Source: an uncultured Chloroflexia bacterium (lineage in GTDB: Bacteria > Chloroflexota > Limnocylindria > Limnocylindrales > CSP1-4). Taken from it: a DNA stretch of 64,000 nt. Positions 34,747-38,353 of the stretch are shown one piece after another (the stretch's first letter is position 1; every line of letters starts with the position of its first letter). The position numbers and the translations under genes were made by a program. The stretch spans positions 416,001 through 480,000 of the forward strand of contig CAVQJC010000020.1 in the NCBI GenBank assembly GCA_963712745.1, given 5' to 3'. The notes under the pieces are model-generated. The model had not been told where the DNA came from, ran no database searches, and saw nothing but the letters and a program-made list of their open reading frames with translations.

Positions 34747-35112
34747 GTGTCGTACACGGATCGGACCCTTACATGCGTCGACTGCAGCGTGGAGTTCATC
34801 CACTCCGCTGCCGACCAGGAGTTCTATGCAGAGAAGGGGTTCGTGTCCGATCCCAAGCGCTGCCCCAGCTGCCGCGCAGCCCGGCGGTCCATGCGTGAGT
34901 CCGGTGGCTACGACTCCCGTGACATCGGTGGCCCACGCGGCTACGAACGTGGCGACTACCGGGCCCCGCGCGAGTACTTCGCGGTCATCTGCTCCGAGTG
35001 CGGCAATGCCGCGCAGGTGCCCTTCAAGCCGCGTATGGACAAGCCGGTCTACTGCTCTGACTGCTTCCGCACGGTCCAGGCCCGCAACGCCGAGCAGGCG
35101 GAGACCGCCTGA
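34747..35112 (+). CDS. Zinc-ribbon protein with CxxC-x17-CxxC domain
   Basis: GGAGG SD plus GTG; DRTLTCVDC...QEFYAEKGF...PKRCPSCR; CSECG...VPFKP...PVYCSDCF. Confidence 0.88.
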   Translation: MSYTDRTLTCVDCSVEFIHSAADQEFYAEKGFVSDPKRCPSCRAARRSMRESGGYDSRDIGGPRGYERGDYRAPREYFAVICSECGNAAQVPFKPRMDKPVYCSDCFRTVQARNAEQAETA

Positions 35113-35262
35113 CGCCACGACCACTCCGGGACACAGACCCGGCCGCTCCGGCGACGGGGCGGCCTTGCGGATTCTGCTGGACGGTCGGTCCTTCGGCCGG
35201 GAGCCCGTCCTCCGGCCGGGGCCGATCTTCCGACCGGATCGTCGAGAGTACGGATGAAAGTG

Positions 35263-36471
35263 TCAAGCCCCGGGCGTGGGTATACCCTCTGGACGGACGC
35301 GGTCGACCGCCTGGCGAAGGGTGGGGTGATGGGGATCGTCCCCACCGCGCAGCCTTGTCCGGCCCAGGTCGTGACTCGAACCAAGCGCTCCCCGTTGCGG
35401 CGACCGCGTCCCGGACACCTCCCGGCCGGCCAGCCGCTCGAGCGCGCGCCGCTTGGTACGCGCCAGGTCCGGTCGGGCATCCCGGTAGTCCTGGTCCTTG
35501 GTGAGCAGGTGCCAGGCGATGATCGCGAGCTTGCGGGCGACCGCGATGATGGCCACGCCGCCACCGCGGCGTGCCTTGATCCGGGCATGGAAGCCCGCGA
35601 GCGGTCCGGGCGAGCGGATGGCCGCATGGGCGGCCTCGGTCAGCAGACCCCGCGCATGCGCTTGGCCGGCCCGGCTGATGTGGCCACCCCATGCGGGTCG
35701 ATCCCCCGACTGGTGCACGCGGGGATCGAGCCCGAGGTAGCTCACCAGCTTGGCCGGTCGGCCGAACCGGGAGACGTCGCCGATGACCGCGAGCAGGCTT
35801 GCGGCGGTGACGAGCCCGATGCCCGGGATGGTCAGCAGCCGGTGCACCCGGGGGTCGTCGACCACCATGGCCGCGATGGCCCCGTCCGCGGCCCCGATCT
35901 CCTCACCCAGGAGCGCCTCGAACCGGAGCGCCGAGTCCAGGCCCAGTCGCTCCTCGGGTGGCAGCTCGAGCCCGCCCAGCCAGCGTCGCCCGGCCACCCC
36001 GAAGGGGTCGGTGGCGGGGCACCGCAGCAGGCGGCGCGACACGATCGCCGTCACCCGGTTGCGGGTCGCGGTCCGGTCGCGCACGAGGCCCGCCCGGTGG
36101 GCCACCAGCCGGCGCAGGGAGCGGGTGGTCGCGTCTGGCACCCACACCTCGGGCAGGTAGTCGGCGGCGAGCAGCTCCGCCAGGGTCGCGGCGTCGATGT
36201 CATCGGTCTTGCGCTTGGCCTCCGCGATGGCCCGGGTGCGGAGCGGGTTGGACACCACCACCCTGCCGGCATGCCGGCCCAGCAGCTCCGCGAGCGCCCA
36301 GGTGTTCGTGGACGCCTCCAGGGCGACCACGTCGTGAGGACCGAGCGTCGCGGCGAAGTCCCGGAACGGGTCGCCCATGGCGACCCTGGGCAGCCTCCGT
36401 GCCGACCCCTTCTGCTCCACCACTGCGACGTGGGCGAAGTCGCGTCCCACATCGAGTCCGACGTATCGCAT
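35263..36471 (-). CDS. IS110-family DEDD recombinase/transposase
   Basis: YVGLDV, ALEAS, KTDDIDA (DEDD RuvC-like); TIPGIG, YLGLDPRVHQSG (catalytic Ser), AVARKLA; AAGGAGG SD before ATG 36471. Confidence 0.95.
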   Translation of the reverse strand: MRYVGLDVGRDFAHVAVVEQKGSARRLPRVAMGDPFRDFAATLGPHDVVALEASTNTWALAELLGRHAGRVVVSNPLRTRAIAEAKRKTDDIDAATLAELLAADYLPEVWVPDATTRSLRRLVAHRAGLVRDRTATRNRVTAIVSRRLLRCPATDPFGVAGRRWLGGLELPPEERLGLDSALRFEALLGEEIGAADGAIAAMVVDDPRVHRLLTIPGIGLVTAASLLAVIGDVSRFGRPAKLVSYLGLDPRVHQSGDRPAWGGHISRAGQAHARGLLTEAAHAAIRSPGPLAGFHARIKARRGGGVAIIAVARKLAIIAWHLLTKDQDYRDARPDLARTKRRALERLAGREVSGTRSPQRGALGSSHDLGRTRLRGGDDPHHPTLRQAVDRVRPEGIPTPGA

Positions 36472-36484
36472 CGAGGGCCTCCTT

Positions 36485-36680
36485 CCCCGATCGGACGATG
36501 GACACCTGGAAGGGCGACACGACACCTACGGATCCGTGCTCAAGGCACAACCGGTCAAGTCGCAGGGGCGGCCAGATAGACTCTCGGACTCTCACGTCCA
36601 CTACGCTCACGGCCCGCCCTCTGGTGTCCCACGAGCCCCTGTCCGGTGGCATCAGCCTACCGATACAGGTGGCCCTAGGC
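36485..36680 (-). ncRNA. Putative IS110 bridge RNA (boundaries approximate)
   Basis: Non-coding left end with two stem/internal-loop modules whose loops match the insertion-site flanks and the element ends. Confidence 0.7.
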
Positions 36681-36777
36681 ACGTTCATACCCGATAGACT
36701 CGAAAGCGACGCGTTCCCCAGCGCCCGGACCGAGTCACGAGAGGGTCACGAGACCGACGCCACGAGGTAGAGCCGCC

Positions 36778-38353
36778 ATGACCGACCAGCCGCGCACCAA
36801 GATCACCTACGCCACGCTGCGCGCGGACAACGCGGAGCTGCACGCCGCCTTCGAGGAGGCACTGGTGGCGGCTCGCGCCCGCCTCGGCGGCGGCCATCCC
36901 AATGTCATCGGCGGAAAGGAACGCAGCGGTGCGGGCGAGTCCGAGCTGCGCTCCCCCATCGACTCCGACATCCTCGTCGGACGCTTCGCCAACGCCACAC
37001 GGCAGGACGTGGGCGATGCCATCGCCGCTGCCCGGGCCGCCCAGCCAGCCTGGAACGCTCTTGGCTGGGAGAAGCGAGTCGACGATCATGACCGCCGTGG
37101 GCGACCTCATCAGCGAGCGGCTCATGGAGTACGGCGCGCTGATGGCCATCGAGGTGGGCAAGAACCGCCTGGAGGCATTGGGTGAGGTCGAGGAGAGCGC
37201 CGACCTCATCCGTTACTACGCCCGCATCGCGGTCGAGAACGAGTTCTACGTCAAGCCCATGGACAACCTGGGCGACCCCGCCACACATACCCGCTCGGTA
37301 CTGCGTCCGCACGGTGTGTTCGGCGTCATCGCACCCTTCAACTTCCCCATGGCCCTGGCCGCCGGTCCGGTCGGCGCCGCACTGGTGGCCGGCAATACCT
37401 GTGTCTTCAAGCCGGCCCGCGCGGGTGCCATGAGCGGCGTGCTGCTGATGGAGACTCTGCGCGACGCAGGTGTGCCCGACGGCGTGTGCAACCTGGTCAT
37501 GGGTCCGGGCGAGACCGTGGGCGACGAGCTCACGAGGAGCGCAGACATCGACGGCATCGTCTTCACCGGCTCGTACGAAGTGGGCATGGGCCTGCAGCGC
37601 GGTTTCACGCAGGCATATCCGCGCCCCTGCATCGTCGAGATGGGTGGCAAGAACCCGGCCATCGTGATGAAGAGCGCCGATCTGGAGAAGGCTGCCGAGG
37701 GCATCATGCGCTCGGCCTTCGGCTTCGGCGGCCAGAAGTGCTCCGCCAACAGCCGGGTCTACGTCGAGCGACCGGTGCATGACGAGCTGGTCCAGCGGCT
37801 GGTCGAGATCACCGAGCGGCTGACCGTGGGTGATCCGCTGCTGCGAGAGAACTTCATGGGCCCGGTCACCGACCAGCGTGCGCTGGACCGTTTCAGGCAG
37901 GCGGTGGCTGAAGCCCGCCGAGACGGCACGGTCTTCACCGGCGGCGAGGTCCTCACCCAAGGCGACCTGGCACGCGGCTTCTACGTCGAACCTACCGTCG
38001 TGGGCAACCTGCCGGCCGACCACCGGCTCTTCCGCGACGAGCTCTTCGTGCCCTTCACCGCGGTCCTGCCGGTCGAAACGCTCGACGAGGCGCTCGGTCT
38101 CTCGAACGCGGTCGTCTACGGCCTTACGGCCGGCATCTACAGCGAGGTCGACGACGAGGTCGAGCGGTTCCTCGACGGCATCCACACCGGCGTGCTCTAT
38201 GTCAACCGCCGGGCCGGTGCCACCACCGGTGCCTGGCCTGGCGTGCAGCCGTTCGGCGGCTGGAAGGGCTCGGGCTCGACGGGCAAGGCCGCCCTGGGCC
38301 CGTACTACGTGGCCCAGTTCCTGCGCGAGCAGTCGCACACCATCGTCGACTGA
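36778..38353 (+). CDS. Aldehyde dehydrogenase (P5C-dehydrogenase-like), frameshift near 37085
   Basis: APFNFP, FTGS, EMGGKN, GQKCSA, ELFVP, QPFGGWKGSG. Confidence 0.88.

Follow-up and report, generated by a model that had tools for sequence, protein, structure and literature searches.

An IS110-family insertion sequence from an uncultured Chloroflexia bacterium with a predicted bridge RNA upstream of its recombinase gene and guides in the IS1111 order

Introduction

The described systems closest to the locus reported here are IS621 from E. coli, with its 177-nucleotide (nt) bridge RNA (Durrant 2024, PMC11208160; Hiraizumi 2024, PMC11208158), ISEc21, and the IS1111-group elements ISEc11, ISPa11 and ISKpn4, which use seekRNAs (Siddiquee 2024, PMC11187229). 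According to the text of the last paper, IS1111 seekRNAs carry the segment complementary to the target's top strand 5' of the segment matching the bottom strand, and ISEc21 shares the guide order of IS621, with the bottom-strand match first (PMC11187229). As far as their text goes, the two founding papers tie guide order to the position of the RNA: the bottom-strand match comes first where the RNA lies upstream of the gene, the top-strand complement where it lies downstream (PMC11208160, PMC11187229). Here we describe an IS110-family element in a 64,000-nt window (the whole stretch of DNA that was analysed) of contig CAVQJC010000020.1 from an uncultured Chloroflexia bacterium (assembly GCA_963712745.1, here G000). 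Judged by its ends, its core, the co-variation of guides and flanks, its catalytic residues and its insertion polymorphism, it is very probably an intact, recently mobile insertion sequence that chooses its target by its own bridge (seek) RNA.

Results

Ends, core and target site

The element is read on the minus strand and consists of a recombinase gene preceded by a leader of 223 nt, counted from the left core to the ATG; on the right side only 12 nt separate the stop codon from the TA core. A long non-coding end upstream of the gene is the arrangement of IS621 and ISEc21. The leader is predicted to contain two internal loops, loop 1 with the target guides and loop 2 with the donor guides. 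The outer features, in window coordinates, are as follows.

35249..36696, minus strand: whole IS110-family element, 1448 base pairs (bp) if the TA cores of both junctions are included, 1446 bp with a single core
36697..36701, minus strand: left target half GAGTC, predicted to be read by the 3' guide of loop 1; contiguous with TA-CTCTC in empty sites
35244..35248, minus strand: right target half CTCTC, predicted to be read by the 5' guide of loop 1, to which it is 4/5 complementary

We searched for the flanking genes in 41 related genomes, in many of which they are adjacent. Because nine of the ten same-genus loci inspected carry the uninterrupted site GAGT(C/G)-TA-CTC (seven with C, two with G), the element runs exactly from 36696 to 35249 with TA at both junctions (36695-36696 and 35249-35250 in the minus-strand reading), and empty and filled sites differ by precisely the element plus one TA, with no other duplication. 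Identical ends are defined by about 40 homologous loci and by a second copy in G021, which is 95-96% identical but decayed (81 bases missing, plus small insertions) and which keeps identical ends and guides at a different site (...GAGTC-TA ... TA-TGCTG), the orthologous site in G021 being empty. The first-pass annotation, made from the letters of the window, had proposed a complete element with a TA core; its ends and core are thus those that the empty sites and the other copies define, and the strings it quoted (GAGCGTAG, GAGTCTA, ATCCGTA and both TA cores) all lie on the minus strand where it had placed them.

The tenth same-genus locus (L013, on G004:C169) holds 271 nt of other sequence at the orthologous intergenic site. 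It reads GAGTC-TA-TCGGGT, whose last 6 bases are those with which the element's left end begins; the 271 nt that follow TCGGGT are unrelated and internally repeated and include no right end. An old insertion may have left this remnant, or the match may be due to chance.

GAGTnTA stands at nearly every left junction, and one could suppose that it is the tip of the element itself, not target sequence, so that the 3' target guide would merely resemble the element's own end. Against this, GAGT(C/G)TA is directly followed by the right flank in the nine uninterrupted sites of relatives, and this genome holds 67 element-free GAGTCTA sites, two of which are occupied in public contigs. We give this explanation almost no credence and take GAGTC to be the left half of the target.

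Target guides and flanking sequence

The two candidate target guides occupy opposite strands of loop 1.

36601..36608, minus strand: 5' target guide GAGCG-UA-G (GAGCGTAG), complementary to the top strand over core and right flank; hypervariable in the family
36577..36583, minus strand: 3' target guide GAGUC-UA, in the same sense as left flank and core, hence pairing with the bottom strand

For comparison we used 22 homologous loci from species genomes (20 of them at 66-78% protein identity, all in Chloroflexota metagenome-assembled genomes) and 29 from metagenome contigs (23 at 73-99%). In the 3' guide, GAGU(C/G/A)UA, the base that precedes the core is identical to its counterpart in the flank at all 38 distinct sites (27 C, 9 G, 2 A). 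The whole 3' guide scores 149 against the left flank, compared with 140.6 +/- 2.2 for shuffled pairings (4 of 20,000 shuffles as high), and in two more distant relatives guide and left flank are altered together (GGUCG/GATCG and UGGUG/TGGTG). As for the 5' guide, over 31 distinct pairs its reverse complement scores 178 against core and right flank, compared with 136.3 +/- 5.4 after shuffling, and none of 20,000 shuffles reaches 178. When each of the 17 distinct guides is represented by a single site, 62 of 85 positions agree versus 34.1 +/- 4.6 (0 of 5,000 shuffles). By flank position, with L046 and L048 left out for want of a UA in the 5' guide, the match at each of +1 to +4 is attained by 0 of 2,000 shuffles, that at +5 is marginal (131 of 2,000), and the signal is absent from +6 to +8. 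The 5' guides occur in two registers, N7-UA-NU and N8-UA-U; in the former, the base after UA tends to pair with the last left-flank base, as G/C in 19 cases and C/G in 6, while G stands opposite A in 2 and T opposite G in 1. The guide of the window copy predicts the flank CGCTC, and the four right flanks that share this guide are CTCTC (window), TGCTG (G021), CGCCC (C17) and CGTGA (C20:194214), whose majority sequence is CGCTC, the guide complement. The leader therefore has what is expected of a bridge or seek RNA, namely segments complementary to both target strands which overlap at the core and co-vary with the flanks, as the first-pass annotation had predicted.

The loops might instead be laid out as in IS621, the 5' strand of each reading the left half and the 3' strand the right half, with near-palindromic target and donor sequences accounting for the matches above. 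The target, GAGTC-TA-CTCTC, is in part a palindrome, so that on inspection the 5' guide fits its left half too, at 5/7 positions, and the tested elements with an upstream RNA, IS621 and ISEc21, have this order in the text of the papers that describe them. Across homologues, however, the 5' guide does not track the left flank (123 versus 124.2; 13,845 of 20,000 shuffles as high), nor the 3' guide the right flank (112 versus 115.7; 19,410 of 20,000), whereas the scores of the opposite assignment are equalled in only 0 and 4 of 20,000 shuffles. An IS621 layout is therefore very improbable, and the guide order, as read from sequence, is that of the IS1111 seekRNAs, with the top-strand complement first, not that of IS621 and ISEc21. 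On this point the 'IS621-type' loops of the first-pass annotation had to be given up.

Donor guides

Loop 2 offers a corresponding pair of guides to the element's own ends.

36527..36533, minus strand: 3' donor guide AUCCG-UA, in the same sense as right end and core
36550..36554, minus strand: 5' donor guide CCGGU, which by inspection can pair with A-TCGG (core and left end) with one G:T wobble

The sequence AUCCGUA equals right end plus core at 7/7 positions and is invariant in all homologues and in 6/6 plasmid relatives. The 5' donor guide would pair with the left end over 5-6 bp. Here the Chloroflexota set offers no variation, but one compensatory change separates more distant elements: ISMch4 has the left end TA-T-CCGG with the guide CCGG-A-U, and the Nitrobacter and Bradyrhizobium elements have TA-A-CCGG with CCGG-U-U. 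As in described bridge and seek RNAs, the predicted RNA would thus match both ends of its own element, the left-end half more weakly.

Leader structure

The predicted fold comprises a 5' stem-loop and two modules enclosed by one helix.

36625..36682 (limits approximate), minus strand: 5' stem-loop of the leader, from the fold and from variable columns 14-55 of alignment A1
36565..36619, minus strand: target-binding module, outer stem GGGCGGGCC/GGCCGCCCC
36600-36610, 36586-36599 and 36574-36585, minus strand: 5' loop, hairpin GGAC-GTGAGA-GTCC and 3' loop of the target-binding module
36514..36563, minus strand: donor-binding module, outer stem GCGAC/GUCGC
36549-36558, 36536-36548 and 36519-36535, minus strand: 5' loop, hairpin GTGC-CTTGA-GCAC and 3' loop of the donor-binding module
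36501..36505, minus strand: GUGUC, 3' half of the helix enclosing both modules, with its partner GACAC at 36624-36628

Both stem/internal-loop/hairpin modules, which the first-pass annotation had drawn, appear in the minimum free energy and centroid folds and in the RNAalifold consensus of 31 sequences. In alignment A1 (31 distinct leaders, 81% mean column identity) the variable columns cluster in the 5' hairpin, along the 5' strand of loop 1 and in both hairpin loops. The 29 named pairs are paired in 99.9% of 864 cells, as against 32.7-45.4% when partners are slid, and the five pairs of the GACAC/GUGUC helix are 100% paired, four of them invariant. The case for this predicted structure is one of conservation together with the pattern of variable loops, not of covariation.

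A scan of 34800-37200 with Rfam 15 gave seven matches, all far below the gathering scores and none to a bridge-RNA family; the best, to mir-278 (E 0.1), is spurious and falls on a hairpin outside the element (35170-35240). In the RNA libraries X15 and X16 the leader has no coverage, and identical contigs lie only within the recombinase gene (36081-36434 and 35887-36124); since DNA may be present in these libraries, they speak for neither expression nor silence.

Joint promoter and subterminal repeats

Four short motifs lie close to the ends.

36684..36689, minus strand: -10 hexamer TATGAA, in the left end
35261..35266, minus strand: -35 hexamer TTGACA, in the right end, overlapping the TGA stop codon of the recombinase gene
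36680..36688, minus strand: left copy of the subterminal inverted repeat, ATGAACGTG, separated from the core by 6 nt and conserved in homologues
35254..35262, minus strand: right copy of the subterminal inverted repeat, CACTTTCAT (reverse complement ATGAAAGTG), separated from the core by 3 nt

Joining right end, TA core and left end by script yields TTGACA, a 17-nt spacer and TATGAA, and a promoter scan found 0 promoter-like sites in the integrated copy, in agreement with the earlier proposal of a promoter present only in joined ends. That proposal had also included IS1111-like subterminal inverted repeats next to an upstream non-coding RNA. The repeats are real but short: ATGAACGTG/ATGAAAGTG spans 9 nt with one mismatch (13/18 if extended), below the 11-13 typical of IS1111 (range 7-17 bp), and it is outside the 25 longest of the 157 inverted pairs of the element. 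It is kept in all homologues having both ends, and in alphaproteobacterial relatives its fifth base is altered at both ends together, giving ATGAGAT at both.

Recombinase

The gene and its candidate catalytic codons are placed as follows.

35263..36471, minus strand: recombinase gene, 402 amino acids (aa) plus stop, Pfam PF01548 and PF02371, with GGAGG 7 nt before the ATG
36451-36453 (D7), 36316-36318 (E52), 36202-36204 (D90), 36193-36195 (D93) and 35707-35709 (S255), minus strand: catalytic codons

Both Pfam matches exceed the cut-offs (PF02371, E 5.3e-24; PF01548, E 5e-19), which gives the protein the RuvC-like DEDD domain and the C-terminal Tnp domain with catalytic serine of the IS110 family. 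D7, E52, D90, D93 and S255, the DEDD and serine residues that had been predicted for it, align with D11, E60, D102, D105 and S241 of IS621 (chain 8wt6_A; PDB numbering +2), which are described as essential in the text of the structural study (Hiraizumi 2024, PMC11208158), and S255 sits in GLDPRVHQSG, fitting the motif G..P....SG. Overall kinship is distant: the match to the 328-residue IS621 chain is weak (61.6 bits), and only residues 205-330 align with IS5075-family transposases, at 33% identity. In the text of Siddiquee 2024 (PMC11187229), transposases are 330-350 aa long in IS1111 and 395-455 aa in the branch containing IS110 itself; with 402 aa and an alignment limited to residues 205-330, the protein does not look IS1111-like, the transposases of that group being akin over their full length.

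Copies at other sites

Two further insertion sites, both in G000 and both empty in this assembly, are occupied in public contigs by copies 99-100% identical to the window element. A 1,469-nt contig of run X1 matches 35272-36701 with one difference and then runs on past the left end into the sequence at C20:194214, a site preceding an open reading frame (ORF) that begins MTRLIVQKYGGSS and that we take to be aspartokinase-like. A contig of run X2 and L056, a 1047-nt metagenome contig, join the right end to the C17 site (about 254816). L056 derives from the element by an internal deletion: its left end, loop 1 and some of loop 2 run straight into the final third of the gene, followed by the right end, and it may be non-autonomous. 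That several sites hold near-identical copies suggests recent movement, although this evidence consists of contigs, some of them possibly chimeric across the repeat. Contig depth was 12.9 and 14.5 for the element and 2.4-5.1 for the flanks, a hint only, depth not being copy number. No circle or excision joints were found in the contigs of the four runs examined, an assembly form that drops rare molecules.

These observations bear on whether the element is a stranded relic with a leader that is only a structured 5' untranslated region. In favour of a relic are the single copy in the assembly, the decay of the G021 copy and the internal deletion in L056; opposed to it are the open 402-aa frame with all five catalytic residues and the 99-100% identical copies at two sites that are empty here. 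We consider a relic unlikely and a mobile element the better account. The first-pass annotation had called the element probably active, and the insertion polymorphism in public contigs speaks for that, while neither its RNA nor its circle was detected.

In some contigs (L017, L024, L055, L051 and L052) the two flanks come from different copies; these contigs are probably assembly chimeras across the repeat or products of recombination between copies.

Reach of the RNA family

R1, a covariance model of the two modules, matches the upstream region of 6/6 plasmid relatives (E 1e-18 to 4e-15), whose proteins are 45-53% identical, and also L034. The plasmid relatives are from Rhodococcus, Mycobacterium, Arthrobacter, Bradyrhizobium and Nitrobacter and, with an element of the ISMch4 family, from Methylobacterium. 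No match better than E 3 came from the eight loci whose identity is 25-31% (L035, L036 and L060-L065). In this genome R1 finds only the window copy, and among 151 genomes drawn from the class it finds four positives, this genome included. The predicted RNA family spans Chloroflexota, Actinomycetota and Alphaproteobacteria, lying upstream of ISMch4-like transposases in the latter two.

Among the best-scoring 40 plasmid records, ISMch4-family and unnamed IS110-family transposases show 43-53% identity over 87-99% of the length. The plasmid relatives share with the window element the upstream RNA family (6/6 of the records compared), the right end ..CATCCG and the donor guide AUCCGUA; they differ in their target guides, in that several copies lie inside other transposase genes, and in having TG or TC in place of TA at some right junctions. 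No paper in the literature collection that was searched mentions ISMch4.

Several of these loci have features of their own. L068, L069 and L070 have TC or TG at the right junction and TA at the left, as expected if imperfect-core targets are used; about 37 nt of the right end are duplicated in tandem in L069 (a Bradyrhizobium betae plasmid); L066-L068 share the left flank ..TCGATCGCGTTGG; and the L068 element has genes annotated as the transposase of another insertion sequence on both sides. G000 itself has at least five further loci for IS110-family transposases, which differ in type, one being split over two frames and none having an R1 RNA: C4:201360-201830, C20:141332-141802, C20:26894-27365, C8:95500-95955 and C1:109267-109704.

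Landing sites and start codons

In 17 of 40 distinct left flanks an opposite-strand ATG or GTG located 10-12 nt from the core opens an ORF, compared with 313 of 7,000 random positions within these flanks. Read in the direction of the gene, the site is TA-nACT-C-N5-ATG, which places a TANNNT hexamer 6 nt before the start codon. In G000 (68.5% GC), ORFs of at least 150 aa carry TANNNT at 6 and 7 nt before the start in 212 and 172 cases, versus about 35-65 at distances 0-5 and 11-20, and a GANNNC control showed codon periodicity only; this spacing signal suggests that G000 has many leaderless genes. At that distance from a start codon lie 23 of the 67 GAGTCTA sites of the genome, versus 5% of all TA sites, and the constant guide, read as TAnACTC, is likely to match the -10 box of a gene that appears from this spacing to be leaderless in about a third of its occurrences. 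The share of insertions at such sites (42%) is about what the motif alone predicts, and the window's own site is about 80 nt before the start of the downstream gene. For a -35 element, the 31 right flanks offered only a slight, unconvincing rise in A+T at positions 17-23. A literature search combining IS110 with leaderless or IS900 returned nothing relevant by title.

Neighbouring sequence

Just beyond the right end, after a zinc-ribbon gene ending at 35112, lies the GC-rich hairpin at 35170-35240, probably a terminator-like structure of that gene. On the other side an aldehyde-dehydrogenase-like gene starts at 36778 on the plus strand and changes frame near 37080-37110, so that ORFs 36778-37185 and 36902-38353 overlap. 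Because contigs of two public runs have one letter fewer at 37083, this frameshift probably reflects either an error of assembly or a difference between strains.

Discussion

By analogy with IS621 and ISEc11/ISEc21, we propose the following cycle. The element would excise as a circle, whose joint of right end, TA and left end creates the TTGACA/17/TATGAA promoter; from there a leader of ~205 nt and the recombinase mRNA would be transcribed. The leader would fold into the 5' hairpin and the two internal-loop modules closed by the GACAC/GUGUC helix, loop 2 holding the circle joint and loop 1 reading the target, and the DEDD/Ser recombinase would exchange strands at TA, leaving TA at both junctions. 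The complex can be, we infer, the IS621 complex with both DNAs bound reversed, since TA reads identically on either strand and the swap affects both loops; the true difference would then lie in how the RNA-plus-gene unit is oriented with respect to the ends.

Several findings weigh against this proposal. On the side of the guides, 2 of the 31 pairs (L046 and L048) have no UA in the 5' guide, the window copy's right flank CTCTC has one mismatch to its own guide, in several plasmid relatives the 5' guide is mismatched with the present right flank, and the 5' donor guide pairs at 5 positions only, one of them a wobble. As for the RNA, its fold is no more stable than that of shuffles (z -1.04 over 225 nt and 0.01 over 141 nt), and its stems are conserved rather than proven by covariation, because 24 of 29 pairs never vary and compensatory changes, in 12 cells, occur in 2 pairs only, a count not above shuffles (143 of 500). 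In addition, the promoter scan requires a final T, which is missing from TATGAA, and the assembly holds only one copy of the element.

The family matters for how guide order and RNA position are related. With a predicted upstream RNA and the IS1111 guide order, it breaks the link between the two, so that they are separable, and this constrains how IS110 and IS1111 diverged. The family also provides a natural dataset readable from genomes (17 distinct variable guides and 31 guide/right-flank pairs), with a constant half of 5+2 nt and a reprogrammable half of 4-5+2 nt, and for tool building it offers a recombinase and RNA that form a compact pair, use a TA core and have their guides in mirrored geometry.

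A wider view is speculative, and we would put it on the doubtful side: the family may represent a third widespread bridge-RNA architecture, an intermediate for the proposed move of the RNA between ends, and a case of promoters used as landing pads. Such an architecture would order its transcription unit as IS621 does, with the guide polarity and subterminal repeats of IS1111, and the guide of its Chloroflexota branch would be fixed on TAnACTC, the -10 hexamer of leaderless genes and the following base. The TA core would then rebuild the -10 hexamer after insertion, and promoter melting possibly helps landing. If the constant half marks leaderless -10 boxes, these elements would systematically disrupt or rewire promoters in GC-rich bacteria; the box before the presumed aspartokinase-like gene, occupied in a public contig, is an example.

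How the locus compares with described systems can be set out from the text of the founding papers. With IS621 (PMC11208160, PMC11208158) it shares the DEDD and serine recombinase, an RNA in the left end upstream of the gene, an RNA with a 5' hairpin followed by target and donor internal loops whose guides include the 2-nt core, and a promoter formed only at the circle joint, here read from sequence. It differs from IS621 in that both loops have their guides in swapped order, TA takes the place of CT as the core, the left guide has 5+2 nt and the right 4-5+2(+1) nt versus 7+2 and 2+2 or more, the subterminal repeat has 9 nt versus 2-3 bp, and a helix encloses both loops. With the IS1111 group (PMC11187229) it has in common the guide order and the asymmetric terminal extensions of the subterminal repeats, 6 and 3 nt here versus 7 or 6 and 3 in IS1111, although core counting may differ; unlike in that group, where the RNA is downstream of the gene, the predicted RNA family is upstream in all copies, the recombinase has 402 aa versus 330-350, and the repeat has 9 nt with one mismatch versus 11-13. 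ISEc21 (PMC11187229) resembles it in the upstream non-coding region, the junction promoter and the short matches to both target strands, but has the bottom-strand match first and a transposase of 358 aa. The combination of an upstream RNA, the IS1111 guide order, medium subterminal repeats, a TA core and one fixed guide half is undescribed in the text of the founding papers, whose supplements may show such a layout (Durrant Supplementary Table 5 and Extended Data Fig. 10c; Siddiquee Supplementary Fig. 2). Measured against that text, the mechanism proposed here is known and the layout is new.

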